From NCBI GenBank assembly GCA_965197675.1, contig OZ240221.1:280095-344094 (forward strand): 64,000 bases of DNA, in the 5' to 3' direction. Numbering within the stretch: the first letter of the stretch is position 1; each line of letters begins with the position of its first letter. A program made the position numbers and the translations under genes. The notes under the pieces are model-generated. The model was not told the origin of the DNA. It was given only the letters and a program-made list of their open reading frames with translations, and made no database searches. This document shows, piece after piece, positions 1,170 through 23,510 of the stretch. This DNA comes from Dehalococcoidia bacterium (GTDB taxonomy: Bacteria > Chloroflexota > Dehalococcoidia > Plut-88900).

Positions 1170-1171
1170 GG

Positions 1172-2512: not shown

Positions 2513-2571
2513 GATGTTCTCCTTCTCTCAATTGTAGAAGAGGGTCTATAGAGGGTCAAGAACACGTGTGG

Positions 2572-2973
2572 GACTAGATTTCCCAGAAAGGCACCCGTCT
2601 TGTTCCCCAATCGACCGCCCAGGTAGGTTTTGTGTGTGGGGGCACATCCCTTCGAGGGACTCAGGACAGGCCCCCAAACTCCCTGCCAGAGGGTGGTTCC
2701 CTCCGGCAGGCTCAGGATAAACTCTTGGCTCACCATGAGCGGCGGGCACCCTTGGGGGATTCTGGGACAGGCCTCCCTTGGATTCCCGTGTCAAGCACGA
2801 GAATGACGGTATAGGGGGTGGCAGGGGAATGACGGAAAAGAGGGCGGCACGGGAATGACGGCATAGAGAATGAGGGCACCCTTCCCTTCGACTACGCTCA
2901 GGGTAAACTTTAAGCTCATGGTGAGCGGAGATACTTCATCCCCCGACTCCTTCTTCCTCGGGGGATTTTGGTC
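2572..2973. repeat. Modular palindromic intergenic repeat, copy 1
   Basis: Modules GGGGGCACATCCC..CCCTGCCAGAGGG, CTTCGnnnGCTCAGG, GATTCCCGTGTCAAGCACGAGAATGAC and GAGCGGAGATAC, shared with copies near 15.9, 23.6, 24.9, 25.7, 28.7 and 42.1 kb. Confidence 0.85.
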
Positions 2974-3408
2974 GGGCCTTGGTAGGGGCATTTAGAATAC
3001 AATTCGTCGAGCTGTAGGTACGAGTGTAGAATAATTATCTATCTAACATCACGATCTCAGTGGATTTTAGATAACCCAGAATACGTTTGATGGTCTGTAG
3101 TTTACGAGGACTCTACCTGATCTGTCTGTCCAGCGAGGACAGAGCGAGTTTGTTCCTTCCCTCACCGGTAATCATCTCTCTGGTACTCTGGCTGTTGGCC
3201 TATCAGTTCGAGCGTTTCCCTGGAGATTTGTCCTCGGCTCGCCAGATAGTCCACTCGCCCGGGCGATGGCTGGCTGAGCCAGTTGGCTTTACGCTGACCA
3301 GGCAACATATAGGGTGGAGATCCGCTTCTCACTTACTGCGCCTTTGTGATAGAATGCACCCAAGATTCAACAAATCAATAAATCAATCCAGGTTTTGGCA
3401 CGTCTGAG

Positions 3409-3936
3409 ATGAGAGGTAACGTTAGCTCAAGCCAAGCGGTCTTGGTTCTGAACCAGAACTACGAGCCACTGAATGTTTGTAGCTCTCGTCGAGCTGTAGT
3501 TCTGATCCTGAAAGGAAAGGCCGAAACTTTGGAAAACGGCCTAGGTGAGATCCACACCTCCTCGGCCCTGTTTCCACTACCATCGGTGGTGAGATTGGGC
3601 TACATGATCAAACGACCACTCCTTGCCCGTAAGATGTCCCGTCGAGAAGTCTTCATCCGAGACAGCTATTCCTGCCAATATTGTGGGAAAGAGACTCGCG
3701 AACTGACGTTGGACCACGTAGTTCCCAGAAGGTTGGGCGGCGAACACACCTGGGAGAATGTAGCCAGTGCGTGTGTTTCCTGTAACCTCAAGAAGGCGGG
3801 CAGGACTCCGGTACAAGCAGGGATGAAGTTGCGTCAAAGACCTGAGACACCTCCGCAAAGGCGCTACGGAGATTTACAGCCCTATTTGGAAAATCGGGAG
3901 GAGTGGCGCAAGTTCGTTCCAGCCTGGGGGAACTAG
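3409..3936 (+). CDS. HNH endonuclease (McrA-like, CxxC zinc-binding)
   Basis: VLVLNQNYEPL N-terminus, RDSYSCQYCG, LTLDHVVP, WENVASACVSCNLKK. Confidence 0.9.
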   Translation: MRGNVSSSQAVLVLNQNYEPLNVCSSRRAVVLILKGKAETLENGLGEIHTSSALFPLPSVVRLGYMIKRPLLARKMSRREVFIRDSYSCQYCGKETRELTLDHVVPRRLGGEHTWENVASACVSCNLKKAGRTPVQAGMKLRQRPETPPQRRYGDLQPYLENREEWRKFVPAWGN

Positions 3937-4181
3937 GGCTTTACCTGTTCCCTGTCGAACTGCTTCATGTCCTCTAACGTCGCTAATCTTGAGATGCTAG
4001 GCAGAGTCTCTCTTAACTGATTGACTACTATCTGGTTGGGGGCGATGATCACTCTGCCAACCTTTTCCTTACCATCCGACTTAGCTATCACGTAGTCGTT
4101 AACCTTAACGGCCAGGCCGCCGGAGTCGAAGTAGTGCACTCGGCCAGCCCTCTCAAATCGTACTCCCAGTGTTGCACTCAT
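3933..4181 (-). CDS. Short YaaT/RicT (PSP1) N-terminal-domain protein
   Basis: GVRFERAGRVHYFD...V..RLAT.ED resembles the YaaT N-terminus; lies directly after holB, the usual synteny. Confidence 0.7.
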   Translation of the reverse strand: MSATLGVRFERAGRVHYFDSGGLAVKVNDYVIAKSDGKEKVGRVIIAPNQIVVNQLRETLPSISRLATLEDMKQFDREQVKP

Positions 4182-4191
4182 ATTGTTCGAT

Positions 4192-5247
4192 TTATACTGT
4201 AGACCCTGTCACGGCGACTTGAGGCATCCTAAGCATTAGCAACTCCACTACCATCCTTGCATTTACATTACGCTCTAAATCGGCTTGAGTATTGATCAAT
4301 CTATGGATGAACCTTTGTATATCATCCAGTGAGTACCTTCGGGACTGCTCTTGAAGATGCCGAATCATGTGTGTGTTGGTAACCGATCTCATCGCACTAC
4401 CCTTGACCAAGAGCAAGTCCCTCCACCATGATAGCCACTGCCCCAAGATAAGTCTGCCCCTCTGTCGATCCTGACTATGGATAGCTGCCAACTCGACAGC
4501 GTAGCGAAATCTTCCCTCCAAGCCAAGTTCAGACAGCTCTGCGAGACGATTCAGAGTGTTTATACGAGTCTCCAAAATGTTTTCGTCTTGGATGGCGGTG
4601 ACGGCCCAGCCTGGACAGCCCTCAGACAGTCGCGCTAGAAGTTCGGCCTTCTCCTTATCCACTGAAAATTTAGCCGCTAGGATTTCAGACAACCTGACAA
4701 CAGACATGGGACGCAGTTCGATCTTGCTACACCGAGACCGAATGGTGGGTAGGACTGCGTCTTCATTCGTGGTGAGGAGGACCAGAAGCACCTGTGGAGG
4801 TGGCTCTTCAAGGGTCTTGAGCAGACTGTTGGCAGCCTCATTGCTGAGGAGCTCAGCCTCATTGATAATGAAAACCCTGTACGGGCCCTCATAGGGATGA
4901 AGACTGGCGGCCTTTTGAAGCTCCCTCACCTTACCGATGCCGATTCTGGTAGAGCCCTGGACTAGCTCTCCGTCATCCGAGGTGCTGATCACCTGCACGT
5001 CCACGTGCTGGCCTGAATCTACGCGGAGACACTGGGAACAGGATTGACAGGGTTTCTCATCTTCATTTTGGCAGCTGACAGCCTTTGCCAGATGGATAGC
5101 TGCAGCCATCTTCCCCACGTGTCTCGGCCCGATAAATAGATAAGCATGGGACATTCGCCCAGACTTTAGACTGTGAGTCAAGAAGGCCAGAACACCCTCG
5201 TGACCGATTATAGGCATTGAGCGCTGGCCTTCTGCTGTAGTCGTCAC
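4192..5247 (-). CDS. holB: DNA polymerase III delta' subunit
   Basis: HAYLFIGPRHVGK, zinc Cys cluster, AANSLLKTLEEPP, LPTIRSRC. Confidence 0.93.
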   Translation of the reverse strand: MTTTAEGQRSMPIIGHEGVLAFLTHSLKSGRMSHAYLFIGPRHVGKMAAAIHLAKAVSCQNEDEKPCQSCSQCLRVDSGQHVDVQVISTSDDGELVQGSTRIGIGKVRELQKAASLHPYEGPYRVFIINEAELLSNEAANSLLKTLEEPPPQVLLVLLTTNEDAVLPTIRSRCSKIELRPMSVVRLSEILAAKFSVDKEKAELLARLSEGCPGWAVTAIQDENILETRINTLNRLAELSELGLEGRFRYAVELAAIHSQDRQRGRLILGQWLSWWRDLLLVKGSAMRSVTNTHMIRHLQEQSRRYSLDDIQRFIHRLINTQADLERNVNARMVVELLMLRMPQVAVTGSTV

Positions 5248-6557
5248 AGGTCGTGCCCCATGAGGTCTTGGTAGGTCTCTCTGCGACGTATGAGTCTTGC
5301 TTCACCGTCCTTGACCAGAACGATGGGGGGGCGTGGAGCCGCATTGTAATTACTGGCCATCGAAAGGCAGTAGGCACCGGATGCTGGGATGGCTATAAGA
5401 TCCCCAGCGACCACCTCAGGCAGATCTATGTCCTTGATAAGGATGTCTCCGGACTCACAGAACTTGCCGGCAATGGTAACTTGAGTGTCGGCTTTGTCTG
5501 TTGCCTTGTTGGCGACCACAGCTTCGTATCGGGAGCCGTATATAGCCGGACGGATGTTATCCCCCATGCCTCCGTCTACCGATATGTACCTTCTAACGCC
5601 CGGCACGTCCTTTGTGGAGCCTACCTTGTATACTGCAACCCCCGCCTGGCCAACTATGGCTCGGCCCGGCTCAATCACCAGTTTGGGGGGTGGCATATCG
5701 GGCTCTTCGCAGTTCTCTAAAATCGCCGAGGTTATTGTCTCGGCGTACCTAGAGACGGAGGGGGCTGGCTCTTTTTCGGTGTACTGAATGGCGAAGCCTC
5801 CTCCCGGGCTTAGCTCTCCGAGTACGAAATCATATCGCTCCTGCATTTTGGCGGCGAAGGCAGCAGTTATTTCGATGGCCGTCTGATAGGGTTCCAACTC
5901 GTAGATAGGGGAACCCAGGTGGAAATGCAGCCCTAAGAGGTTCAGATTGGGAGCTTCCTTTGCCTCTTTTACCGCTTTCTCAGCCATCCCCCCTTCAATA
6001 GAGATTCCGAACTTGCTGTCCAGAATGCCTGTGGTGGTGTGGGTATGCGTGTGAGGGTCTACCCCAGGAGAAACTCGCAGAAGGATGTCTTGAGCCCTCC
6101 CCCTCCGGCCTGCCAGGTCATCGAGAAGGTGGAGCTCGTAGAAGTTGTCCACCACCACCCTTCCCAACCCCCAGTCCAAGGCGGCCTCCAACTCTTCCGG
6201 GCCCTTGTTGTTGCCGTGAAAATAGACCTTCTCCGGGGGAAAGTTTACAGCCTGCGCCACCGCCATCTCTCCGCCTGAGACCACGTCCAGCCCCAGTCCC
6301 TCCTCCTGGAGAATCCGGGCCAAGTCGAGGTTGACGTAGGCCTTGCAGGCGTATAGGACTAGGACATCCGGGTAGCGTTGGGCGAACTCGCTCTGAAACT
6401 CCCGACACTTATGTCGGAGGGTATCTTCATCAAAGACGTATAGAGGAGTGCCATACTTGTCGGCCAGGTCTGACAGGTCGCACCCACCGATGGAGATGTG
6501 GTTGCTGTCGTTTATCTCAGTAGTTGTGGGGAATATAGCTAGTCGGCCCTGCGGCAA
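5244..6557 (-). CDS. lysA: Diaminopimelate decarboxylase
   Basis: YGTPLYV, YACKA (PLP Lys), DVVSGGE, HFHLGS, EPGR, CESGD, SNYN. Confidence 0.95.
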   Translation of the reverse strand: MPQGRLAIFPTTTEINDSNHISIGGCDLSDLADKYGTPLYVFDEDTLRHKCREFQSEFAQRYPDVLVLYACKAYVNLDLARILQEEGLGLDVVSGGEMAVAQAVNFPPEKVYFHGNNKGPEELEAALDWGLGRVVVDNFYELHLLDDLAGRRGRAQDILLRVSPGVDPHTHTHTTTGILDSKFGISIEGGMAEKAVKEAKEAPNLNLLGLHFHLGSPIYELEPYQTAIEITAAFAAKMQERYDFVLGELSPGGGFAIQYTEKEPAPSVSRYAETITSAILENCEEPDMPPPKLVIEPGRAIVGQAGVAVYKVGSTKDVPGVRRYISVDGGMGDNIRPAIYGSRYEAVVANKATDKADTQVTIAGKFCESGDILIKDIDLPEVVAGDLIAIPASGAYCLSMASNYNAAPRPPIVLVKDGEARLIRRRETYQDLMGHDL

Positions 6558-6636
6558 GGTGAATCACCTAATTTGGAGTGGACTAGGGCATTATACAGAT
6601 ATTGCCAGCGAGCCAGCAAGGTGAGGGTGGCGGTTT

Positions 6637-7320
6637 TCAGGATAACAGTATCTGTAGCGCCCTTTCGAAAATGCCGTCCAGCATAGCCTGGGTGAGTTTA
6701 CCCGTCTGGGTGTTCTGGCGGCTGGGATGATAAGAGGTGACTAGAGTTATGTTCGAAGATAGTTTGTATTCGAGCCCGTGACCGAATTTAGGCTTCGGAG
6801 AGGGAAGCGGGCATTTAAGCACCTTCCAGGCATTGAGAAAGCTATCGAAGGCGATTTTGCCCAACGCAATGACCACTTCGACGTTCCTCAGAACCTCTAA
6901 CTCGGCCAAAAGGTAAGGCTGACATCGCCCCAACTCCTCCGGTAGAGGTTTATTGGCTGGCGGAGCGCATCTCAAAGCCGCGGTGATGTATATGTTCTTC
7001 AGCACCAAGCCATCGCCTCTGTGGGTCGATAATGGCTGGTTGGAGAAATCACATTTATACAGGGAGCGTAACAGCCATTCGCTGCTACCATCTCCTGTGA
7101 ACATACGTCCCGTCCGATTGGCGCCATGGGCAGCAGGGGCCAGACCAAGAATCAATATCTTAGCTGATTCATCACCGAAGCCCGGCACAGGTCGCCCCCA
7201 GTAATCCCAGTCGCTGTACATACGACGCTTTTCCCTGGCTACCGCCTGTCGATACTCCACCAATCTGGGACATTGAGTACATGAGATTATTCGTTGGTTC
7301 AGTTGTTGAAGGATGAGCAT
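6637..7320 (-). CDS. Uracil-DNA glycosylase, family 5 (Fe-S)
   Basis: CTQCPRL, GLAPAAHGANRTGRMFTGD, RCAPPANKP, YHPSRQNT. Confidence 0.9.
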   Translation of the reverse strand: MLILQQLNQRIISCTQCPRLVEYRQAVAREKRRMYSDWDYWGRPVPGFGDESAKILILGLAPAAHGANRTGRMFTGDGSSEWLLRSLYKCDFSNQPLSTHRGDGLVLKNIYITAALRCAPPANKPLPEELGRCQPYLLAELEVLRNVEVVIALGKIAFDSFLNAWKVLKCPLPSPKPKFGHGLEYKLSSNITLVTSYHPSRQNTQTGKLTQAMLDGIFERALQILLS

Positions 7321-7396
7321 TACAGAGAGTATAGCACCGAGGTTGCATGACTCGTAGAATAGACTAAAGCTGAATACTCCAAGGCACGTTCAGGGC

Positions 7397-8125
7397 ATGC
7401 AGAAAAGGGCCCGGTATACTGGTTCACGATTAAGGGGATCATCACTTTATGTAACGTCCCTGGTTGCCTTCCTCGCCCTGTACAACAACCTGATAAACCT
7501 TCTACCAGAGGACCTCCACGATCAAGTCTACGTTCCCTTGAACCTATCCGTAGCACTGCTTTTGCTGCTCTCTGCTAGAGTTTATGGGCTCTCGTGGAGC
7601 GACCTGGGACTATCACCCACTCAATGGCCGCAAGGCGTCGCCTGGGGAATGTCTTTGGGATTGCTACTGACGGCTCCCTTGTTTCTGGCCTTGATCTTGC
7701 CTGGCCCCTTCACCTCGTGGATAGATGATCCCCGAATAGAAGGGATGAGTCTTGCGGGACTGGCTTACTTCGTGTTAGTTCGCATTCCCCTGGGTACTGC
7801 CCTATTCGAGGAAGTGGCGTTCAGGGGAGTCTTGTACGGCACTTTAGAAACGACATTCAATCTACGAACTGCTGTGCTAGTCTCAAGCATCCTGTTCGGT
7901 ATTTGGCATGTCACTCCCACGTTCAACGCACTGGTGGAAGGGGACCGATTTGACGACGCGGCATCTTTGGCGTTGGCAACTCTGGGAATGGTGGTACTCA
8001 CCGGTGTCGGAGGCCTCTTCTTCGCCTGGCTCAGGTGGCGAACTAAAGGTGTATACGGGCCTTTTCTCACTCACTGGTTGATAAATGGGCTGGCGGCCAT
8101 CGCCGCATATATGGCCACGCAATAG
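7397..8125 (+). CDS. CPBP (CAAX/Abi) intramembrane metalloprotease
   Basis: EEVAFRG, FGIWH, HWLIN motifs; multiple hydrophobic segments. Confidence 0.88.
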   Translation: MQKRARYTGSRLRGSSLYVTSLVAFLALYNNLINLLPEDLHDQVYVPLNLSVALLLLLSARVYGLSWSDLGLSPTQWPQGVAWGMSLGLLLTAPLFLALILPGPFTSWIDDPRIEGMSLAGLAYFVLVRIPLGTALFEEVAFRGVLYGTLETTFNLRTAVLVSSILFGIWHVTPTFNALVEGDRFDDAASLALATLGMVVLTGVGGLFFAWLRWRTKGVYGPFLTHWLINGLAAIAAYMATQ

Positions 8126-8151
8126 TTCCAGGTTATCTTGCGAGCATAAGA

Positions 8152-8181
8152 CTTGACATGACTCATATCAGGTAGCATAAT
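8152..8181 (+). promoter_or_regulatory. Sigma-70 promoter with overlapping HAIR-like operator upstream of hspR-grpE-dnaK
   Basis: TTGACA(8153-8158)-17 nt-CATAAT(8176-8181); CTTGACA-N7-TATCAGG (8152-8172) vs HAIR consensus CTTGAGT-N7-ACTCAAG. Confidence 0.6.
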
Positions 8182-8250
8182 ACGTCTTGTATATATCTCA
8201 CGCAATGATTTTCGGTGTCGATAACATCGCATTGAACGAGGTTAACTTCT

Positions 8251-8610
8251 ATGCAAGGTAGAGGCGTATACGTAATGAGGGTGGCCTCCATGCTCTCGGG
8301 GATGCATCCGCAGACCCTGAGAAAATACGAAAGGGTAGGTCTGCTGGCCCCGGCCCGCCGAGGGACCTTACGCATGTACTCTGACGAAGATATCGCTCTT
8401 CTCCGAACGATAAAATACCTGGTCGATGAGGTGGGGCTAAATATAGCCGGCGTAGACTTAGCTCTTAATCTACGTTCGAAACTCCTTCAAATGCAACGAG
8501 AACTGCCCCTTCTCACTGATGATTCCCTGCTAAAGAAACGGCTGGGCAAGTATATATCCAACATGGTTAACACACTGGAGCCTTCCAGGAGTCTTGTAGT
8601 AAGCGGATAG
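8251..8610 (+). CDS. hspR: MerR-family heat-shock repressor HspR
   Basis: GVYVMRVAS.LSGMHPQTLRKYER.GL, RMYS, GLNIAGV; first gene before grpE-dnaK. Confidence 0.85.
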   Translation: MQGRGVYVMRVASMLSGMHPQTLRKYERVGLLAPARRGTLRMYSDEDIALLRTIKYLVDEVGLNIAGVDLALNLRSKLLQMQRELPLLTDDSLLKKRLGKYISNMVNTLEPSRSLVVSG

Positions 8611-8622
8611 GCTCGTCATCTA

Positions 8623-9189
8623 GTGGTAGATAGCATGGAAGGAGAATGGTCAGGAGCAAAAGAGGGGCAGATGGGATATCCAGATGACCTTATGGAACGC
8701 CTACGGCGGTCGGAAGACCATCTGGAGGAGTACAAAAGACTAGCACAGTGGGTACAAGCAGAGCTCAGCAACTACAAACGAAGAGTCGAAGAAGAGCGGG
8801 AAGAGCAGGCAAAGCTCGCTACGGCCGGACTGATAGAAATGCTGCTCCCTGTCGTAGATAGCCTCGACAGGGCCTTGAGCAACTTTCGAGGAGAGTCCGA
8901 CAACCCAGAGTGGAGGAAAGGTATCGAGTTAATTCGAACCAATCTTTTGTCGGTCTTAGAACAAGAAGGCCTCAGCCGGGTGGAGGCCCAAGGCATGTAT
9001 TTCGATCCCAATCAACACGAAGCTATAATGACGGAAGAGACCACAAATATCGAAGACGGAAAGATAATCTCAGTCCATCAAGAAGGCTACATGCTTCATG
9101 GGAGGTTGTTGAGACCGGCGCGTGTCTCGGTGGCGAGAAACAACAATCGCGGCCACGCGGACCATGAAAGCGATAACAGCTATGAATAA
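8623..9189 (+). CDS. grpE: Nucleotide exchange factor GrpE
   Basis: AELSNYKRR, LLPVVDSLDRAL, FDPNQHEA, GY.LHGRLLRPARVSV. Confidence 0.93.
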   Translation: MVDSMEGEWSGAKEGQMGYPDDLMERLRRSEDHLEEYKRLAQWVQAELSNYKRRVEEEREEQAKLATAGLIEMLLPVVDSLDRALSNFRGESDNPEWRKGIELIRTNLLSVLEQEGLSRVEAQGMYFDPNQHEAIMTEETTNIEDGKIISVHQEGYMLHGRLLRPARVSVARNNNRGHADHESDNSYE

Positions 9190-9240
9190 GGCTTACGGTT
9201 ACGGAATCACGATAAGGGGAAGAAAGAGAGGTTGGAAAGA

Positions 9241-11181
9241 ATGGCAGGTGTACTAGGAATAGACCTGGGAACCACAAACTCTTGTACGGCAGTAATGGAT
9301 GCGGGGGACCCGACTGTCCTAGAGAACAGTGAGGGCACTAGAACTACGCCATCTGTGTTTGGAGTCAACCCTAAGACAAATGAGCGCTACGTAGGTCAGG
9401 TGGCGAAGCGTCAAGCGGTAACCAATCCTGATAACACCGTCTTTTCAGTCAAGCGACTCATGGGGCGCAAATTCGAAGATCCAGAGGTTCAGAAAGACCT
9501 TAAACTCCTTCCCTACAAGATTATCAAAGCGTCCAATGGAGATGCTCACATTCAGATACTGGACAAGAGTTACTCTCCTCCGGAGCTATCTGCCATGATC
9601 CTACGAAAGTTGAAGGAGGATGCGGAAGCCAAGCTTGGCCAAAATATAACCGAGGCGGTAATCACAGTTCCAGCCTACTTCAACGACAGCCAACGCCAGG
9701 CTACCAAAGACGCCGGCAAAATAGCGGGCCTGGAGGTGCTTCGAATTATCAATGAGCCTACAGCCGCATCTCTTGCCTACGGCCTAGATAAGAAGGGCGA
9801 TACCACTATTGCTGTCTACGATCTGGGTGGCGGTACCTTCGATGTCTCCATCTTGCAGATCGGAGAAGGTGTTTTCGAGGTGAAGTCCACCAACGGAGAT
9901 ACTCACCTAGGAGGAGATGATTTCGATCAGAGGATCATCGACTGGCTAGTGGCCGAGTTTAGGAAGGACCAGGGCATAGACCTGAAACAGGACAAAATGG
10001 CCTTACAGCGATTGAAAGAGGCTGCCGAGAAGGCCAAGATAGAGTTGTCCAACGTAGTACAGACGGAGATCAATCTCCCTTTCATCACCGCGGACGCCAG
10101 CGGCCCCAAACATATGAACATCGCCCTCAGCCGTTCCAAGCTTGAGCAACTGGTGGGAGATCTGGTCGCGAAAACCGAGGGCCCATGCCGTCAGGCATTG
10201 AAAGACGCTGGGCTCACCTCCTCCGACGTAAGTGAGGTGGTGTTGGTGGGTGGTCAGACTCGCATGCCGACGGTAATAGAAAAGGTGAAAGAGATTTTCG
10301 GGAAGGAGCCTCACAAGGGTGTAAATCCAGACGAGGTTGTCGGCGTGGGCGCGGCCATACAGGCTGGCGTTCTCAAGGGTGAGGTACATGATGTACTGCT
10401 CCTAGACGTCACTCCACTGACCCTGGGCATCGAGACTCTTGGTGGAGTTATGACCGCCCTTATACCCAGGAACACAACTATACCCACATCTAAGTCTCAG
10501 GTGTTTTCTACGGCCTCAGACAACCAGCCCAGCGTGGACGTTCACGTGCTCCAAGGCGAGCGGCCTATGGCTCCAGAGAACAAGACTATCGGTCGTTTCT
10601 TATTGGATGGCATCCTGCCTGCTCCCAGGGGCATGCCGCAAATAGAGGTAACTTTCGACATTGACGCCAACGGGATACTTAACGTCTCAGCCAAAGATAA
10701 CGGCACGGGTAAGGAGCAGAAGATCACCATCACTGCCAGCTCCGGCCTCTCGCAAGAGGAAGTGGAAAAGATGGTGAGGGAGGCCGAGACTCACGCCGAG
10801 GAGGACAGGGGCAAGCGGGAAGAGATAGAGGCTCATAACAATGCCGACGCCCTGGTCTACAACGCAGAGAAGATGATGAGGGAGCATGCCGACAAGGTCC
10901 CCGAAGACCTGAAGTCTGAGATAGAGGGGAAGATAGCGCAGGTTCGCTCGGCTCTTCAGGGTTCGGATACGCAACAGGTGAAGAGATCAACTGAGGAGCT
11001 CCAAGAGTCCCTCCAGAAAGTGGGGTCTGCGGTCTACGGTCAAACCGGTGGAGGACAACCGGGTAGCCCAACTGATGGCCAGGACCCCAGTGAGCCTGGT
11101 CAGGACGTAACGCCTGAAGGAGAAGAGACCGTAGAGGGTGAGTTCAAGGAGGTTCAAGACAACGGAGGCCCGACCCGATAG
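9241..11181 (+). CDS. dnaK: Chaperone DnaK (Hsp70)
   Basis: [31 protein letters not shown]; ATG at 9241 preferred over TTG at 9232. Confidence 0.98.
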
Positions 11182-11714
11182 CCTGTCTAAATCCTCAATG
11201 GTCTAGCTACACAGCCGCCTCGAGAAAAACTTATCGCTCACTGATAGTCTCCGTCGAGTCCGGCAGCCCCACCAATAAGAACGGGATTATGTCGGAGATT
11301 CGATAGTGGCCTTAGATAGTCGGTGGAGGATTGGATGAGTTGCCATCTTACTCAGTGGAGACCTGATAGGTAAGGAAACACCAGTCGAGGTGATGCGCTG
11401 GAAAAACCCAGGACGTAAATGTGTCGGTAGCTCTGCGCGCCGCAGTAACGCACGGGCCGGGATAACCACCATCTAGCGCCTCGAGGGTCGGTTATCACCA
11501 ATGCACGCGTAGTGGGGCTAAGTCTACGGTAGGCAGTACTACCTTCGAGTTGTGGCTGGGCCTGTGAGTCTAGCATGCCTCACTCCTCAGATTATTAAGG
11601 TGCGTGATAGGTGGATGTAGCATCCACTCGCAGGTAACAGAGGCTAGGCTTGTATCGTTTTTCTGGTTCTCGGGCGGCCGTCCGGGAAAACTTCCGCTAC
11701 TGGAGAGCCAGCTT

Positions 11715-11845
11715 GCTCAGGGGGCGCGGCCCAGGTTGGTGTGCAGGACGACTCCGGTGGCGTTGATGGCTCGCCGGGGCCGGGATGTCCATTGCTGGGA
11801 TGCTTTTGCACACACACTTTCTACGATCTGGGAGAGGTTTAGAAC
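11715..11845 (-). pseudogene. selA: Selenocysteine synthase (SelA) relic fragment
   Basis: Minus strand reads NLSQIVESVCAKASQQWTSRPRRAINATGVVLHTNLGRAP then stop; INATGVVLHTNLGRAP is the SelA signature; not in the ORF track. Confidence 0.8.
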
Positions 11846-12149
11846 GAGGTCACCGCTTGCCTAGGAATTGCGAACCCCGTCCAGATGACGCCGGATATGG
11901 GAGTAGATTGCAACCAGTTGCTGCACCGCTTCTTGCTGCAAGACGGCGCCAATACTGGGGAGGCTACGGAATCCACTGGTCAAATAAGCCTTTCAAGGAG
12001 AGAATACAGAAATTGTAGCACAGCAGTTGCTTGCCGCTACTGGTCCAGGACGGTGGCCTCGTGCATGAGGAAGGGCACTGGCAGACGGCAGCGCGGAAGG
12101 GGGAGGGAGCCGTAGGGTATAGCAAGAACCCGCCTGATCGGCGATAAAG

Positions 12150-14588
12150 TCATGTCCCGACTGCTGAATGATTCCTTGCCACCCATGCGCTTACTCGTGA
12201 GACACAATTGTCGAGATCGTCTCGTATCTCGTAGACCCAAAACCGCATGATGTCCCAACCCAACTCCATTAGACGTTGGTTACGTATCTGGTCCCTGCGA
12301 CAAAGCTCGCCATTCCAATCGCGGTGGTAGAGCTCGCCATCGACTTCTATATCCAGGCGGACCGACCCGCAGAATAATGCAAAATCCAGATCGTATTGAT
12401 CGACGGAGTATTGGGGAATCGGTCTGTGCCCGGCTGAGAACAGAGCTTTGTAGAATATTCTTTCCCAATCTGAAACGCGTTCCGGCCGCGACACAGTTGG
12501 GTACTCCACCCCTAACTCTTTATCCTCCGCGCTTGAGGTTTCTCGACCTACCGTGGCAATATCATCAATGTACCGAGCGAATCCTTCAAGGTAATCTACT
12601 TCAGAGGAGGCTGTGGCGGACTTGTCTCCAATCACAACTAGCATCGAACGGGCGCGAGTAATCGCAACATTGAATAAGTTTCCGTTACGCCTTAGGAAAT
12701 TCAATGCGTTCTCTGAAATGCCATCTGATACAACCGGCGAAAAAATGATCAGGTCTCGTTCATCTCCTTGGAACCTATGGACCGTATCAACCAGGAAATC
12801 AGCAGATGTTAGCCTTTGCGTAAGTACTCCGTCCTGAAAGACGATGTCCCTAATGCGATTGGCCTGTGCACGGAACGGACTGACGACGCCAATCGTACCT
12901 TTATAGCTACGCTCCGATACAAGTCTACGCAATTCGAGGACCACGGCTTGGGCCTCATCCTCATTCAGGGCTCCCCCTGCAGGGGAGCGCGATACGTGTC
13001 CACGCAAGTCTATCCAGCGAATAGCGGGGCCGTCTCTCGAAGCCATCTTCAAGCTATCGTAGTCAGTTGCTACCCGAAGTCGACCTTCATAGAACTGGTC
13101 ATTTGAGAACGTGATGATGTCGGCGTGAGAACGATGATGGTCTCGCAGCGCCACGATGTCTTCACTCCGACAGAGACTGCTCGCTAAATCGAACAAGCTA
13201 TGAGCCGAATACGCCCATGAAGCATAATCCATTGTAGGATCGTGGGCAGCTAGAAGCTGCTGGTCTCTAGCTGGGCTAATCGAACTGATATGACGGAGTT
13301 GCTGAGGGTCACCGATGATCACCGCGTGTTTCGCCCGGTAAAGTAGGGGTAAAGCGGAGGCGATGTCGCACTGGCTGGCCTCGTCGATAACCACCAAATC
13401 GAAGATGCCGGGTTCGAGGGGTAGACGATTACGCGCCGACAACGAAGTCACGGCCCAACAGGGAAGTAGGTCAGCCACACTTCGGGAGAGTTGATAGTAG
13501 CGGCGGTAGAGGCGAGATACATCCTTACTGGCCTGGCGGTCTTCTTCGTTAGCTTTGACAATCAATTGTAAGAGTGCGGAGTAATCGCCCAGCAATTTTC
13601 TCTCTTCTTGCGACAGTCTGTTAGGCTGGATATGTAGCCAGTAATGCCAGAGTTGCATTGAATTGTCCGCGATTGCGTCGTTCAATTCGAGTACAACCTT
13701 CGCGACTACCTCTGCCGGTTCACATTCTTGTAACATGGCGAGAGATTTGAAGTATTCATCTATCCTGTGCACCGAATTGCAACGTTCTATAGCGCTGTTT
13801 CTGAATTCGATCCATTGAAGGATTGTGTCATCGTTCGGCGGCTGGATGGGGCTGCCAATTCCCAGAATATTTTTCACATTCTGAAATTTCTGGACTGCCT
13901 CCGCAAGTCGTGCGTATCTGGCATTTTTTCTAAAGCGCCAGGATAGCTTCTGGAGAATTGATTGGCGGCGCCGATTAGCTCCATCCACCGCTTTAGAAAA
14001 CGCAAAAAGGGCCTCGTCAATCTTCTCAATTGGCAGATTGCGGATCCGCTGGAAATTTTCCTCGCCGAAGAGGCCTCGCAAATCTTCTATCTGCTGCTCG
14101 ATATGGTCGACCCGGTTTCGAGCAGCTACCAGCTGGTCAAGCAGCAATTGATGTGATTTCATCTTCTCTAGCAGCTGGCCATGAATATCTAAATGGTGCT
14201 GGTAATTCGCCTCGTCATCAGGAGTGGCTTTTGCTCCCAGCAACGACGATAGGTACTCAACGAGCTCTCCCCGATGTTCGTTGGTGCCAAGTCGAAGCAA
14301 TATCGGACGCGAGCCGAAAGCGTTGACACGTTCCTCAACGACATCCACAGCTTTGTTATTCTTGCTCGCGAATAAGACTTTCTTTCCTCGCCAAGCGGCG
14401 TTCATCAGCAACGCTGTCACCACCTGTGATTTGCCGGTGCCAGGTGGACCGGTAATGACCGTGAGAGGATTTGAAAACGATCTCTCGATTGCGGTGCGCT
14501 GCTCCAAATTCAAGGGAACAACCTGAAGCAACGGCGGTTGTTCACTCTCATTCACATGTTCTTCCTTGCTACGCGTCCTAATAACCAA
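12150..14588 (-). CDS. UPF1/Dna2-like SF1 helicase with C-terminal DUF559/Vsr-like nuclease (C-terminal part of a split gene)
   Basis: GPPGTGKS, DEASQ, GDPQQL, TVHRFQGDE, NVAITRAR; C-terminal DFAL..IEVDG..YH..D..R..L..GW..RFW. Confidence 0.88.
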   Translation of the reverse strand: MVIRTRSKEEHVNESEQPPLLQVVPLNLEQRTAIERSFSNPLTVITGPPGTGKSQVVTALLMNAAWRGKKVLFASKNNKAVDVVEERVNAFGSRPILLRLGTNEHRGELVEYLSSLLGAKATPDDEANYQHHLDIHGQLLEKMKSHQLLLDQLVAARNRVDHIEQQIEDLRGLFGEENFQRIRNLPIEKIDEALFAFSKAVDGANRRRQSILQKLSWRFRKNARYARLAEAVQKFQNVKNILGIGSPIQPPNDDTILQWIEFRNSAIERCNSVHRIDEYFKSLAMLQECEPAEVVAKVVLELNDAIADNSMQLWHYWLHIQPNRLSQEERKLLGDYSALLQLIVKANEEDRQASKDVSRLYRRYYQLSRSVADLLPCWAVTSLSARNRLPLEPGIFDLVVIDEASQCDIASALPLLYRAKHAVIIGDPQQLRHISSISPARDQQLLAAHDPTMDYASWAYSAHSLFDLASSLCRSEDIVALRDHHRSHADIITFSNDQFYEGRLRVATDYDSLKMASRDGPAIRWIDLRGHVSRSPAGGALNEDEAQAVVLELRRLVSERSYKGTIGVVSPFRAQANRIRDIVFQDGVLTQRLTSADFLVDTVHRFQGDERDLIIFSPVVSDGISENALNFLRRNGNLFNVAITRARSMLVVIGDKSATASSEVDYLEGFARYIDDIATVGRETSSAEDKELGVEYPTVSRPERVSDWERIFYKALFSAGHRPIPQYSVDQYDLDFALFCGSVRLDIEVDGELYHRDWNGELCRRDQIRNQRLMELGWDIMRFWVYEIRDDLDNCVSRVSAWVARNHSAVGT

Positions 14589-15529
14589 GCGCCAAGGGCT
14601 GTGTCCGAATATGCGTCCTCTGCCAGTTCCCCAAGTCTTCCAAGTTCCGTCTCAAGGCCATGGGTATACGGTGAACGTTCCGCCAAACAGAGGATTGCTC
14701 GGTTATAAATGCCTGCTTCTGTGATCTCTGAGACCTTGGGGCCAGAGGACAGTTCATAAACTTCTGGGTCCTCCCGCCAATCCCAATCGACACGAATTGC
14801 ACGCAACCGGAGGAAAAGCTCGTCTAGATCGGGCAGTTGGCCCGGCGCATTGGAAAGGCCAAGTTCGTCCGCCAACTGGATAGCTTCGTGCATCATACTC
14901 CCACTATCCACGTTGGGGAAATTTCGCAAGTGGGCAAAATTAAAGACGGGCATTTCCTCAAAGCCTGATTCCAAAGGACCACGAAGGGGGTTCCTGCAGC
15001 TTGGGAAAAGCATCACCGGATCCACCTTGTAGTCTTCACAACCGTTGCGCGAGCGTAGCAAGTGAATGCGGATCGGGTAACCGAGAAAAATGGTCAGACG
15101 GCTTCTATCTCGACCAATCTTTCCACGTAAAGTTTGCATTCCATCCACCTGCAACAAATCTGCATCAGAGTCCTCCCAAAAGGGCAACTGGTCGAGTTCG
15201 ACATAATTCAGATCCCCGTATTTGCTGGTGGCGAAAACACTAACGCCTGTATCGGCATCGTGAGTTAGACAATCCAGGTAGTAGCGTGACAGACGCGCCA
15301 AAGGGCCGTCGGACTCTCGTTGCTGTTTAGGTTGCGGCCGAGCGGTTTGATTCGGCAGAGATGTCAAGCGCCAACGATAGGATTCGTCTTGGATAGCTTT
15401 ACGCCGCAAGGGACCGTATAAAATGGCATTCACAGCCTTGCGGTCAATGCCGAGTTCGTCGGCAATCTGCTTAGCTCTGAGACCAGGCTTTTTACCCAGT
15501 AAGTCGATTACTTTCTCAGTGTCGCTCAC
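14552..15529 (-). CDS. N-terminal part of the helicase-nuclease, with a Z-alpha-like winged helix
   Basis: wHTH (AKQIADELGIDRKAVNAILY...W), then a RYYLDCL domain; overlaps the helicase ORF in the -1 frame. Confidence 0.7.
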   Translation of the reverse strand: MSDTEKVIDLLGKKPGLRAKQIADELGIDRKAVNAILYGPLRRKAIQDESYRWRLTSLPNQTARPQPKQQRESDGPLARLSRYYLDCLTHDADTGVSVFATSKYGDLNYVELDQLPFWEDSDADLLQVDGMQTLRGKIGRDRSRLTIFLGYPIRIHLLRSRNGCEDYKVDPVMLFPSCRNPLRGPLESGFEEMPVFNFAHLRNFPNVDSGSMMHEAIQLADELGLSNAPGQLPDLDELFLRLRAIRVDWDWREDPEVYELSSGPKVSEITEAGIYNRAILCLAERSPYTHGLETELGRLGELAEDAYSDTALGAWLLGRVARKNM

Positions 15530-15936
15530 TAATATACTACCGTATGATTTGACCGCTACGGGCGCATTTTCTCTGAAGTGGATTTAAGTATAGGCAGCCG
15601 CTTCTTAACCGGTCAAGGAATAATCGTCCGTTCTGATCTCGTTCGGATAGAAACCGTACTCCTGGGAAGACAGTGCAGGGACGGATACTGTCGGATATTT
15701 ACGTATAATAATGCGGGCTGTCGATAAAAGCCGTGATCGCTCGTAAGATCAAGGTGAGGGTAGGGTGTAAATGAGCCTGTTTCATAAATCCCCCAAGCGT
15801 TGGTTTTCGTCCTTTGACAGTAACTGTCTCAAAAATCAAGGGGGCTGGAGTGATGGTGAAGGCCTCCCTCCGTCGTTCCCGTGAAAACTGGACCTATCCC
15901 ACGATGATGGGATATATAATACACCTCTCGCTCATC

Positions 15937-16160
15937 TGGTTCCCTTCGGTAAACTCAGGATAAACTCTAAGCTCACCATGAGCGGCGGGCACCCTTGCGG
16001 GCTTCTGGGATAGGGTCACCTGGATTCCCGTGTCAAGCACGGGAATGACGGCATAGGCAGTGAGGGCGCCCTTCGGCTGGCTCAGGATGACGCTTCGACA
16101 AGCTCAGGGTGAGCGGAGACGCCTCAAGCCCCGAGGGAGAAGGAGCCGGGGAATTTTGGC
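15937..16160. repeat. Modular palindromic intergenic repeat, copy 2
   Basis: TGGTTCCC..CTCAGGATAAACTCT..GCTCACCATGAGCGGCGGGCACCCTTG..GATTCCCGTGTCAAGCACGGGAATGAC nearly identical to 2694-2807; tail GAGGGAGAAGGAGCCGGGG matches 42426-42453. Confidence 0.88.
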
Positions 16161-16180
16161 CTCTCACTTCTTTTTTCAGC

Positions 16181-22055: not shown

Positions 22056-23510
22056 TTACTGAAACTTCCGTATGTTCTCCTCGAACATTCCAAGCAGCTT
22101 GGCTGCCTGATCATCATAAGCTCGAGGGTCAGTCCAGGTGCTCCTCGGCTTTAGCACTTCGGGAGGGACGTCAGGACAGGAAATAGGAACTTGCAACCCG
22201 AACACCGGATCTTCTTCGGTGGGCACCTTATCCAGAGAGCCGTTCAAATCGGCGCGGACCATAGCTCGGGTATAGGCTATCTTGATACGACGCCCTACAC
22301 CATAAGGCCCACCTGTCCACCCTGTGTTGACCAACCACGTCTGCGCTTTCTGAGTTTCAAGCTTCTCGGAAAGCATCTCGGCGTACACAGTTGGGTTCAT
22401 AGGCATGAAGGGCGCACCAAAACAGGGACTGAAGGTGGCCTGAGGCTCGATAATACCTCGTTCAGTCCCCGCCACCTTGGCGGTGTAACCCGACAGGAAG
22501 AAGAATTTGGATTGTTCAGAGTTGAGCTTGGCGATAGGCGGCATCACACCGTAGGCATCCGCGGTGAGCATGAAGATATTTTTAGGAAGTCCTCCCATTC
22601 CAGTGGCCGATGCATTAGGTATGCTGGTCAAGGGATAGGACCCCCTGGTGTTTTCTGTGACAGAGTCGTCATCCAGATCGAGAATGCGGGTCTTCTCGTC
22701 CAACGTAACGTTTTCGAGGATGGTGCCGAACTTGCCCGTAGTTGCATATATCTCGGGTTCGGCTTCTTTTGAGAGTCTGATCACCTTGGCGTAGCAACCG
22801 CCCTCGAAATTGAATACACCACTGTCGCTCCAGCCATGCTCATCATCGCCGATAAGGGTATGGTCGGAAGTTACAGATAGAGTGGTCTTACCCGTGCCCG
22901 ATAGGCCGAAGAACAAGGCGACATCATCATCGGGGCCTATGTTAGCTGAGCAGTGCATGGGGAAGACATCAGAGAAGGGAAGCAAGTAGTTCATGATGGT
23001 GAAAACCGATTTCTTGATCTCGCCTGCGTAGCTGGTTCCACCTATCAGGACTATCTTATTACCGAAGTCTATGATGACAAATGCTTCAGAGTTGGTACCG
23101 TCCCTTTCAGGAACAGCCTCGAAGCCAGGGGCATGAGTACGGTGAACTCCGGTTCGATCTCATCCAGCTTGTCAGCCGGAGCCACAAGGAACATGTTGGC
23201 GGCGAACAGATTATGCCACGCTGTCTCTGTGACGACTATAACGGGCACCCGATAATGTGGGTCCGCGCCAACAAAGCACTCTTGAACGAAAAGCTCTCTT
23301 TCCTCCAGGTGGGACGTGACCCTTGCGAGAAGGGAATCAAACTTCTCTTGCTCTATTGATCGGTTTACTGGTCCCCACCATATCTTGTCCTGTGAGGAGG
23401 GCTCGGTAACGATGAACTTGTCGTTAGGAGAGCGTCCGGTGTATTTACCGGTGCTGACTACCAGAACTCCGCCCTTGGCAACCACGCCTTCTCTTCTTTT
23501 TACGGCCTCT
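22056..23510 (-). pseudogene. pckA: ATP-dependent PEP carboxykinase, frameshifted and 5'-truncated
   Basis: TGRSPNDKF in one frame; [30 protein letters not shown] and NTGWTGG in the next; one base missing near 23134; N-terminus replaced by repeat DNA. Confidence 0.88.

Follow-up and report, generated by a model that had tools for sequence, protein, structure and literature searches.

A widespread, unnamed family of proteins, each a single chain of about 1100–1130 aa, combines in one order a Z-alpha-like winged helix, a linker, a 250-aa domain, a UPF1-like SF1B helicase that contains a helical insertion, and a Vsr-like endonuclease. One member is encoded in the window, the 64,000-nucleotide stretch of Dehalococcoidia contig OZ240221.1 analyzed here, where the loss of one base, fixed in related strains, has split the gene into two parts. 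The family offers a credible candidate for a Z-alpha-like sensor carried on a defence-type helicase-nuclease. The features are located in Table 1.

Table 1. Positions of the family gene and its parts in the window
Feature	Positions	Strand	Remarks
ORF1 (P0001), 325 aa	14552..15529	minus	N-terminal third of family protein; premature TGA end
Z-alpha-like winged helix	15362..15529	minus	ORF1 residues 1–56; translation, AlphaFold2, PDB profile matches, superpositions
N34 codon	15428–15430	minus	
Y38 codon	15416–15418	minus	
Y51 codon	15377–15379	minus	
W53 codon	15371–15373	minus	
Flexible linker	15308..15361	minus	residues 57–74; sequence variable among homologues
Conserved domain, about 250 aa	14570..15307	minus	residues 75–320; invariant columns of alignment A3, n=60
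-1 frameshift site	14555..14566	minus	three-frame translation vs P0047–P0054; raw sequence
ORF2 (P0002), 812 aa	12150..14588	minus	helicase and nuclease; longest possible start (TTG), putative
UPF1-like SF1B helicase core	12621..14513	minus	AAA_11 at ORF2 residues 26–432, AAA_12 at 463–656
Vsr-like PD-(D/E)xK nuclease (MTES_1575/DUF559)	12189..12461	minus	ORF2 residues 710–800

A preliminary description of this DNA had reported a Z-alpha-like domain at 15365–15529. Translation of the minus strand confirmed the peptide that it quoted, which corresponds to residues 1–55 of the 325-aa ORF; the plus-strand reading of the same interval was ruled out by stops throughout. The motif was present as claimed (R30-K31-A-V-N34-A-I-L-Y38, with W53 15 residues past Y38), and S50-Y51-R52-W53 was found where Pro-Pro had been noted as missing ahead of the Trp. 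In agreement with the proposed fold, AlphaFold2 modeled a 60-aa construct (mean pLDDT, 89.5) as a compact alpha1-beta1-alpha2-alpha3-beta2-beta3 winged helix without dimerisation helices. The helices cover residues 2–10, 16–23 and 27–35 and the strands 42–44 and 50–52 in construct numbering; in ORF1 numbering, the helices are given as 3–13, 19–26 and 30–38 and the strands as 45–47 and 53–55.

Poor conservation of the Asn, Tyr and Trp among homologues, which the preliminary description had named as telling against its reading, was borne out only in part, as the three were unequally conserved. Among 68 species-level homologues, the Trp was invariant (W53, 68/68; in a further count, 121/121) and the Asn was frequent (N34, 55/68), whereas the Tyr was kept in only 28/68 (Y38). 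Asn and Tyr occurred together in 26/68, the full Asn, Tyr and Trp triad likewise in 26/68, and 10/68 had a Tyr one position later. A second residue of the wing, Y51, was also invariant (68/68), and the family consensus Ala/Ser-Tyr aligned to the Pro-Pro of the Z-alpha chain 7c0i. Invariant surface residues in the wing, such as Y51 and W53, form a pattern typical of nucleic-acid contact. The helix-3 Tyr of ADAR1 Z-alpha defines Z-specific recognition; in ADAR1 the wing prolines are P192 and P193 and the wing Trp is W195. The Asn and Tyr of that domain are named N173 and Y177 in the available part of PMC11298590.

Profile A2, built from 68 homologues of the 60-aa domain (one per species), was searched against 177,635 PDB sequences. 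The best 15 matches were all Z-alpha domains, with E-values from 8.5e-9 to 2.9e-3 (ORF112, 8.5e-9; PKZ, 4e-6; E3L, 1.3e-5 to 6.7e-5; ADAR1, about 1e-3), and the first match of any other kind was CENP-B (E 0.006). The best Z-alpha reached 38 bits on A2 and solved MarR proteins at most 18; solved winged helices of the ordinary kind, which number in the thousands, lay at least 19 bits under Z-alpha. Z-alpha also occupied the top 9 PDB places for sub-profile A4 (n=42, members without the Asn and Tyr pair), the top 19 for sub-profile A5 (n=26, members with the pair) and the top 15 for A1, the profile of the 325-aa protein. In the HMMER alignment with 7c0i, N34, Y38 and W53 fell on the Asn, Tyr and Trp of the Z-alpha motif, and R30, K31, N34, Y38 and W53 of the window copy all aligned with Z-alpha contact positions. 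By these comparisons, the resemblance to Z-alpha exceeds chance.

The Pfam scan proposed in the preliminary description did not support the assignment, because PF02295 scored 14.4 bits for the 325-aa protein, 17.2 for the domain and 18 in the six-frame genome, against a cut-off of 21. The best Pfam score of the winged helix was that of HTH_24 (21.6 bits), which was also under its cut-off of 21.9, and MarR_2 scored 13.9 bits against a cut-off of 27. HTH_24 matched 50/68 members, compared with 31/68 for z-alpha at E <= 1 (best E, 3.8e-5), and a sub-threshold z-alpha signal was likewise present in 9 of 14 control genomes. MarR-type regulators of related genomes scored up to 34 bits on A2 over helices 1–3, not far below the best Z-alpha (38 bits), and these matches carry Ser and His where Z-alpha has Asn and Tyr. 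In a language-model atlas, residues 1–62 were nearest to small MarR/IclR-type clusters, all at values below 0.9. The Z-alpha likeness was therefore upheld in that the nearest solved sequence relatives are Z-alpha, but not in its Pfam score, which stayed under the cut-off, or in its structural scores, which were tied.

Superposition of the AlphaFold model gave a similarly divided answer. The model fitted Z-DNA-bound Z-alpha at an rmsd of 1.1–1.4 A over 52–54 residues (Foldseek, VIA), although the scores tied with those of MarR, ArsR and IclR. The top two Foldseek matches in the PDB were Z-DNA-bound Z-alpha (TM 0.75, rmsd 1.4 A), and both the lowest rmsd and the highest identity (23–35%) went to Z-DNA-bound Z-alpha structures. 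With the 325-aa model, Foldseek and VIA gave winged-helix matches only, all to residues 1–66. Weak Foldseek matches of this longer model to the regulators CapW, BrxR and DriD (TM about 0.15, rmsd around 20 A) go back to the winged helix alone. Among the structures of a viral library, the best match was a 72-aa fragment from a phage contig (E 4.2e-5, rmsd 0.5 A, 33% identity). The depositor's name for this fragment is 'Z DNA-binding protein'.

Behind the winged helix, the linker had pLDDT below 50 at residues 59–72 of the 325-aa model and contained no conserved columns in alignments A1 and A3. The middle domain was modeled mostly confidently, with a long beta-hairpin at 145–177, and in A3 (60 sequences) its invariant positions were R82-Y83-Y84-L85-x-C87, a G150-Y151-P152 hairpin and W249/W251. 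No match to this domain was found in Pfam, the whole N-terminal 325 aa gave none in NCBIfam, and no significant PDB sequence match extended beyond residues 1–61; weak leads in the language-model atlas (0.90–0.91) pointed to plasmid Rep-type winged-helix proteins. The SF1 helicase and Vsr-like nuclease that had been described behind the winged helix were both recovered above Pfam cut-offs. AAA_11 scored 89.3 bits and AAA_12 111.7 bits (cut-off, 27 each), the motifs GPPGTGKS, DEASQ and GDPQQL were present in the translation, and an insertion of about 150 aa follows Walker A within AAA_11. The helicase also matched PADLOC MkoC (2.1e-59) and the NCBIfam IGHMBP2-family helicase (2.2e-36). The nuclease domain is predicted from PF18741 (49.2 bits; cut-off, 38.2) and PF04480 (32.1 bits; cut-off, 20.6).

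In related genomes, the two parts are joined in one protein of about 1100 aa at 49 of 63 loci, where the frame stays open for 1072 aa or more from the start of the match, and the family gene was disrupted in 10 of the 63. A search for longer homologues gave 253 at E <= 0.001; among the 120 listed, most were 1105–1130 aa long with AAA_11, AAA_12 and MTES_1575. At least seven homologues among the matches listed add an N-terminal WYL domain (PF13280).

Where ORF1 stops in the window, the homologues read through to the helicase without a change of frame. In P0047, the closest intact homologue (76% identical), ...GRVARK-EHVEESE... lies in a single frame, whereas the window has GRVARK in the ORF1 frame and EEHVNESE in the ORF2 frame. 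A further sequence, P0003, is 99% identical. Four runs, each from a different study, gave contigs that span the frameshift site with 0 gaps, and assembly error was ruled out as the cause of the split because the same frameshift was present in all four studies. Two of the four carry 17 and 20 substitutions relative to the window and thus represent other strains. X1 is identical to the window and could itself be the source sample. A GTG in the ORF2 frame overlaps the TGA of ORF1, so that a working two-gene split is possible; it is disfavoured by the 17 non-synonymous versus 13 synonymous differences, which are small numbers. Among these differences are changes at the family-invariant Y84 and the nearly invariant P194. 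The window copy is most likely an inactive, decaying pseudogene. Because it is broken, it serves as a pointer to the family and not as a working example.

The window copy lies among housekeeping genes (DnaK and GrpE on one side; an aminotransferase, YidC and RnpA on the other), with no defence neighbour in the window. The repeats near the gene were unremarkable, its GC content (0.48–0.54) was near that of its flanks, and Rfam found only two tRNAs over the whole window. Elsewhere, the family proved to be sporadic across phyla and often placed among defence genes. Members were scattered over Dehalococcoidia, Planctomycetota, Acidobacteriota, Verrucomicrobiota, Pseudomonadota and archaeal MAGs, and no family-level match was found among 400 other genomes of the same phylum (best, 34 bits versus 82.7 for the window's own gene). 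A PADLOC match at E <= 1e-8 lay within 5 kb at 19 of 25 loci, a raw count; the other 6 scanned loci had no PADLOC match. At 12 of the 25, a match other than the generic mad3 ATPase reached E <= 1e-30. The strong neighbours were ZorA/ZorD, a short pAgo with its partner, BrxL with DRT1a, type IIG restriction-modification, AbiE and PDC-S01/S24/S39/S41, and at locus L018 zorA and zorD stand immediately ahead of the family gene. No tblastn match to the winged-helix domain was found in 50,697 phage records, and 72,556 plasmid records likewise gave none to the 325-aa protein. The earlier proposal of an anti-phage module is thus in keeping with the frequent defence neighbours of the family, but not with the state of the window copy, which is frameshifted and apparently decaying.

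We hold with moderate confidence an account that joins the architecture, a shape-reading winged helix, a one-protein defence role and the decay of the window copy. The tethered winged helix would read the shape or backbone of a nucleic acid, not its base sequence, and would recruit or license the helicase. The helicase would then translocate along the nucleic acid that is bound, which the nuclease would cut, so that the family protein may act as a one-protein system against phages or other mobile elements. The shape that is read is probably not the left-handed Z form.

Several other explanations were weighed against this account. Vsr-type nucleases and UPF1/IGHMBP2-type helicases have roles in repair and surveillance, and the family protein could be a housekeeping helicase-nuclease for DNA repair or RNA surveillance instead of a defence gene. 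The IGHMBP2-family match and the position of the window gene, which has no defence neighbour and lies between dnaK-grpE and the aminotransferase, yidC and rnpA, are in line with such a role, but we consider it very unlikely given the lack of a family-level match among the 400 other same-phylum genomes, the scatter over bacterial phyla and archaeal MAGs, the frequent disruption (10/63 loci), the defence neighbours at 19/25 loci and the fixed frameshift that the window copy tolerates. N-terminal winged helices commonly act as repressors, and the domain could have an autoregulatory or protein-docking role instead of sensing a target; it might, for instance, repress its own gene or cover the helicase as an autoinhibitory lid. 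The WYL domain added in at least seven of the listed homologues, as in WYL-type defence regulators, and the appearance of CapW, BrxR and DriD among the weak Foldseek matches fit this idea; we find it improbable, however, because dimerisation helices are absent, the winged helix is tied to an enzyme by a flexible linker and does not stand alone as a regulator, Y51 and W53 are invariant in the wing as is typical of nucleic-acid contact, and the regulator matches (rmsd around 20 A) involve the winged helix alone.

Two further explanations accept nucleic-acid binding and differ in what is bound. The domain may be a generic winged helix that binds duplexes or single strands independently of sequence and anchors the helicase-nuclease, its likeness to Z-alpha being of superfamily level; we regard this as a tentative possibility of some weight. 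Parallels exist in the C-terminal globular domain of ZorC and in the Sul7s-like winged helix of CnuH. The ZorC model PDLC00623 matches as strongly as the best Z-alpha, although that model may not represent the tested E. coli ZorC, whose C-terminal domain is needed for sequence-independent dsDNA binding according to the available part of PMC11946911, and CnuH joins a winged helix to a UPF1-like helicase and a Vsr nuclease in the available part of PMC11090510. The structural ties with MarR, ArsR and IclR and the MarR-type sequences of up to 34 bits point the same way, whereas the gap of at least 19 bits to ordinary solved winged helices and the persistence of the Z-alpha similarity in both sub-profiles argue against a merely generic domain. 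A true Z-alpha would bind Z-DNA/Z-RNA or drive the B-to-Z transition through N34, Y38 and W53 and thereby direct the helicase-nuclease against phage, like ZBP1/ADAR1. Four independent profiles rank Z-alpha first among solved relatives, the basic pair, Asn, Tyr and Trp are kept at aligned positions in the window copy, Z-DNA-bound structures give the lowest rmsd (1.1–1.4 A) and highest identity (23–35%), and the family has a defence-island setting. We nevertheless judge this reading unlikely, since the Tyr is found in just 28/68 species-level homologues, both wing prolines are replaced by Ser-Tyr, the Pfam z-alpha score is under its cut-off, and the bacterial Z-alpha-like domains tested, which lack the Asn and Tyr, did not bind the Z form in the available part of PMC11298590. 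Its fullest form, in which a prokaryotic true Z-alpha senses phage DNA or RNA that is left-handed, or Z-prone and torsionally stressed, and licenses the helicase-nuclease, as some ZorC C-termini may likewise do, is doubtful to a similar degree.

As a bacterial Z-alpha candidate, the family is better matched than the look-alikes of sigma-54-interacting regulators; part of it, the window copy included, keeps the Asn/Tyr/Trp signature and has an effector helicase and nuclease attached. No paper linking Z-alpha with an anti-phage helicase-nuclease was found in the searched literature outside subscription journals. If the Z form is bound, the family would add one more immune module common to bacteria and animals and would provide a simple system in which to ask what Z-DNA/Z-RNA marks in infection. 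If it is not, the family would still be a single-gene defence candidate without a name, carrying a 250-aa domain that has no fold match.

Compared with known Z-alpha domains (PF02295: ADAR1, ZBP1, PKZ, poxvirus E3 and cyprinid herpesvirus ORF112), the family domain has the same winged-helix fold of about 60 aa, and the window copy likewise carries a basic pair and, one turn apart on helix 3, Asn and Tyr, with a Trp starting strand 3. Unlike Z-alpha, the family has a wing three residues shorter in which Ser/Ala-Tyr, with the Tyr invariant, replaces Pro-Pro, and the helix-3 Tyr is a minority feature (28 of 68 members). The partners also differ, being a deaminase, kinase, RHIM or dsRBD for Z-alpha and a helicase-nuclease for the family. 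With MarR, HTH_24 and IclR winged helices the domain shares the superfamily fold; unlike MarR/HTH_24, it has no dimerisation helices and a shorter wing and is a 56-aa module on an 1100-aa enzyme. To our knowledge, the 'Z-alpha-like' domains of sigma-54-interacting regulators, winged helices selected for their likeness to Z-alpha, are the only bacterial ones tested so far. In the available part of the report (J Biol Chem 2024, PMC11298590), they showed neither Z-binding nor B-to-Z conversion and have Ser in place of N173 and Asn in place of Y177. The window copy, unlike these domains, keeps both Asn and Tyr and is joined to a nuclease-helicase.

Among defence proteins, Hhe (PADLOC PDLC02194; NF042953) aligns with the family over the C-terminal half of the helicase and the Vsr-like nuclease (5.5e-29 in PADLOC, 8.3e-38 in NCBIfam), as does ProA (NF058533; 2.6e-55). 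The family is neither of the two by score (129.5 vs 2000 for Hhe and 187.6 vs 1500 for ProA, NCBIfam equivalog cut-offs), and Hhe and ProA are 1800–1900 aa long and differ in their N-terminal parts (DUF4011 in Hhe). The ZorC model PDLC00623 matched the winged helix in the window at model positions 620–685 of 687 (E 6.1e-7). In the L018 genome it scored 38.5 bits, its sole match being the family's own winged helix; in 5 family-locus genomes the model matched nothing but the family gene, and another 201 genomes yielded no ZorC. The family protein lacks the EH-signature core of ZorC. According to the available part of PMC11946911, the C-terminal globular domain of EcZorC is required for sequence-independent dsDNA binding and defence and is unresolved in the cryo-EM map.

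The remaining comparison is with CnuH of type III-B CoCoNuT, made by its published description in the available part of Bell et al. (eLife 2024, PMC11090510). The partners given there for CnuH are the McrB/McrC-like CnuB/CnuC, CnuA and CnuD, and the type III-B system is reported mainly from Alphaproteobacteria. No CnuA/B/C/D-like partners were noticed in the window or among the PADLOC matches of the 25 loci, although PADLOC may not model them. The same source describes CnuH as beginning with a winged helix, continuing with a UPF1-like SF1 helicase in which Walker A is followed by a large helical insertion, and ending in a directly fused Vsr-like nuclease. On that description the family shares the part order of CnuH, and the two differ at the N-terminus, where the winged helix of CnuH is said to resemble Sul7s and that of the family resembles Z-alpha.

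The peptide that the preliminary description had reported as a Z-alpha-like winged helix is indeed encoded; it lies on the minus strand as residues 1-55 of P0001 (ORF1); the plus strand at the peptide's coordinates translates to stops only. P0002 (ORF2), which follows it, matched the Pfam models AAA_11 (89.3 bits), AAA_12 (111.7 bits), MTES_1575 (49.2 bits, cut-off 38.2) and DUF559 (32.1 bits, cut-off 20.6). These matches identify it as a UPF1-like SF1B helicase joined to a Vsr-like nuclease, in agreement with the SF1 helicase and Vsr-like nuclease proposed downstream of the peptide. The neighbours of the gene in the window were housekeeping genes, and the GC content was unremarkable. In the stretches on either side of the gene, ORFs did not exceed about 77 aa, Rfam found nothing and repeats were unremarkable. 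A second gene in the window, for a core metabolic enzyme, was also broken: on the PEPCK_ATP model, one ORF covered positions 24-139 and another 187-464, with the middle absent from both frames.

Features of the window (window positions) and of loci in other genomes (L-numbers; defence-gene matches from PADLOC)
Feature	Coordinates	Strand	Remarks
ORF1 (P0001), 325 aa	14552-15529	-	begins with the described peptide
ORF2 (P0002), 812 aa	12150-14588	-	overlaps ORF1 by 37 nt, different frame
Flanking stretch, ~970 nt	11182-12149		
Flanking stretch, ~650 nt	15530-16180		
HNH endonuclease ORF, 175 aa	3409-3936	+	PF01844, E 6e-14; between holB-like (DNA polymerase III delta') and ffh; sole other nuclease-type gene near the winged-helix/helicase-nuclease gene
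ATP-dependent PEP carboxykinase, piece	22056-22994	-	
ATP-dependent PEP carboxykinase, piece	23069-23485	-	
L018 (Desulfobacterales MAG)	812-11400		ZorA/ZorD; ZorA upstream, family gene starts ~150 nt past zorD
L025			PDC-S01
L030			AbiE, PDC-S24, PDC-S09
L033			DRT-like RT
L034, L036			type IIG restriction-modification, Snf2/HKD helicases
L041			short pAgo + partner
L044			BrxL + DRT1a
L046			PDC-S41
L073, 211-aa ORF	1204-1839	-	Asn, His, Pro-Arg-Trp wing
L073, adjoining ORF	1967-2764	+	cytosine-5 methyltransferase-like FPCQDYS motif

P0047, the closest intact relative (76% identical), reads GRVARKEHVEESE in a single frame at the break, where the window reads GRVARK in the frame of ORF1 and EEHVNESE in that of ORF2, going out of frame over a handful of codons; by this comparison, one base has been deleted near 14558-14563. 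The deletion site was spanned, with zero insertions or deletions, by contigs from four public runs belonging to four studies. Two of them carried 17 and 20 substitutions relative to the window and therefore represent other strains, and one was identical to the window and may be the source sample. Because gap-free contigs were obtained from four studies, other strains among them, the frameshift is real and shared. The 30 substitutions within the two ORFs, a small number, comprised 13 synonymous and 17 non-synonymous changes, the latter including Y84H, at a residue invariant in the family, and P194L, at one that is almost so, which suggests that the window copy is under relaxed constraint and decaying. 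The two ORFs may instead form a translationally coupled two-piece gene, since a GTG codon overlaps the TGA of ORF1; however, the substitution pattern, small as the numbers are, points to decay.

With 68 homologues, AlphaFold2 modelled a 60-aa construct confidently (mean pLDDT 89.5): helices span 2-10, 16-23 and 27-35, and 42-44 and 50-52 form a beta-hairpin. When the 325 aa were modelled, a low-confidence linker (59-72) lay between the winged helix and a 250-aa domain predicted for the most part with confidence. A domain profile built from one genome per species (68 genomes) was run against the 177,635 distinct sequences of the PDB, and the top 15 matches were all Z-alpha: cyprinid herpesvirus ORF112 (8.5e-9, 38 bits), PKZ of fish (4e-6), E3 of poxvirus together with an E3/ADAR1 chimera (1.3e-5 to 6.7e-5), zebrafish PKZ (2e-4) and, at about 1e-3, human ADAR1. 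The first non-Z-alpha match was CENP-B (0.006) and the first MarR protein scored 0.015; a 325-aa profile gave the same Z-alpha-first ranking. The signal was independent of the motif residues: for a sub-profile of the 42 members without the Asn+Tyr pair, the top 9 PDB matches were still all Z-alpha (from 4.5e-8); with the 26 members that have the pair, Z-alpha filled the top 19. The alignment to chain 7c0i extended through the wing, where R30 and K31 fall on the two lysines and N34, Y38 and W53 on the Asn, Tyr and Trp; S50-Y51 stands in place of Pro-Pro, which is missing here, as had been noted. The two best Foldseek matches in the PDB were Z-alpha domains solved with Z-DNA (TM 0.75, rmsd 1.4 A, 31-34% identity). 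In a viral structure library, the best match was a 72-aa phage-contig fragment named 'Z DNA-binding protein' by its depositor (E 4.2e-5, rmsd 0.5 A, 33% identity).

In the proposed PF02295 scan, Pfam z-alpha scored 14.4-18 bits, under its cut-off of 21. HTH_24 scored slightly higher, yet just under its own cut-off, and sub-threshold z-alpha signal likewise appeared in 9 of 14 control genomes. Matched member by member (n=68), the family hit HTH_24 in 50, MarR in 43-44 and z-alpha in 31 cases, and PF02295 was among the precomputed Pfam domains of none of the homologues listed by word-indexed search. In 400 other genomes of the phylum, MarR-/IclR-type regulators matched helices 1-3 of the family profile with up to 34 bits, near the 38 bits of the best Z-alpha; in a language-model atlas, the nearest neighbours of the domain were small clusters of MarR/IclR type, none of which reached 0.9. 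A family of small proteins of 77-131 aa at five loci in the phylum (L075, L076, L078, L079, L081) showed the helix pattern ...PGKKAGFIARLLGL.RSEVTRSLP... and a GGLWPF/GGLYPL wing, with 26-27 bits on the domain profile. The 211-aa ORF of L073, in another genome of the phylum, matched the full length of the profile (E 3e-7); gene calls there are uncertain, the region being GC-rich with overlapping ORFs.

The expected N/Y/W conservation held only in part. Among 121 database homologues, N34 was present in 118, Y38 in 86 and W53 in all 121. In the less redundant one-per-species set, W53 and Y51 were invariant (68/68 each), R/K30 was found in 67/68 and N34 in 55/68, whereas Y38 was retained in 28/68 and the Asn+Tyr+Trp triad in 26/68. 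The invariant wing Y51 and W53, not the helix-3 Tyr, look like the family's constant contact surface. The sole bacterial 'Z-alpha-like' domains with a published binding test showed no binding to Z-form nucleic acid; those domains carry Ser and Asn at the two key positions, unlike the window copy (PMC11298590). Herbert (PMC11293857) suggests folds related to Z-alpha for some bacterial ArsR proteins, but not for this family.

The winged helix could also be a general DNA anchor. PADLOC PDLC00623 (ZorC) matches it through the last ~65 model positions (E 6.1e-7), and the C-terminal globular domain of E. coli ZorC, unresolved in the map, is described in PMC11946911 as required for sequence-independent dsDNA binding and defence. 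This likeness supports a nucleic-acid-binding role in defence and lends weight to the anchor reading as well. In the L018 genome, PDLC00623 matched nothing but the winged helix of the family gene itself (38.5 bits) and detected no separate ZorC; the locus may be a Zorya variant with the family protein in ZorC's place, or a plain defence island. We consider a specific kinship with Z-alpha likely and true Z-form binding unlikely.

Word-indexed search gave 44 relatives of similar length, many ending at contig edges, and 253 longer ones; the 120 listed of these were mostly 1105-1130 aa, with helicase and nuclease domains on one chain. With an exhaustive HMMER search, 553 cluster representatives were recovered at E <= 0.001. 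The family occurred sporadically in Dehalococcoidia, Planctomycetota, Acidobacteriota, Verrucomicrobiota, Gemmatimonadota, Nitrospirota, Pseudomonadota and Bacteroidota, and also in a few archaeal MAGs. A search of 400 other genomes from the phylum of the window gave no family-level match. Across 63 loci, the frame stayed open for 1072 aa or more, counted from the start of the match, in 49; 4 ran off the contig end, and 10 were interrupted away from contig ends (L001, L022, L039, L040, L050, L053, L056, L057, L065, L066), which may reflect a high disruption rate or MAG assembly errors. Seven of the homologues listed (P0069, P0076, P0096, P0118, P0134, P0138, P0140; 1049-1359 aa) carried an extra WYL domain (PF13280) before the winged helix, which suggests ligand-controlled versions of the enzyme.

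Thirty-three loci with long flanks held 239 ORFs of 130 aa or more in the surrounding 5 kb, and 25 of these loci (188 ORFs) were scanned against PADLOC. In raw counts, 19/25 had at least one match at E <= 1e-8 and 6/25 had none; 12/25 had a match at E <= 1e-30 besides the generic mad3 ATPase, among them the loci tabulated above with their PADLOC matches. The family is quite probably a defence or anti-mobile-element helicase-nuclease. The domain order, first-domain fold, nearest relatives and neighbourhood are documented; in the proposed mechanism, the winged helix on its flexible tether would read nucleic-acid backbone or shape, after which the helicase would translocate and the nuclease cut. 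We class the family as single-chain helicase-nuclease defence candidates with a predicted N-terminal sensor domain. Its interest would be far greater if Z-form binding were true; the window copy itself is broken. Among the openly accessible papers searched, we found none linking Z-alpha to a bacterial anti-phage helicase-nuclease.

On the enzyme part, PADLOC matched MkoC (2.1e-59), MkoA (4e-51), PDC-S37 (4.8e-49) and Hhe (5.5e-29), and NCBIfam gave ProA, PLuB helicase-like, Hhe and IGHMBP2-family helicase, all far under their cut-offs; no NCBIfam model matched the N-terminal 325 aa. CnuH of type III-B CoCoNuT (PMC11090510) acts with McrBC-like partners, and none of that kind was seen in the window or among the PADLOC matches of the 25 loci. 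The closest architecture in print to this family is that of CnuH, described as a winged helix that resembles Sul7s, a UPF1-like helicase interrupted past Walker A by a helical insertion, and a fused Vsr-like nuclease.
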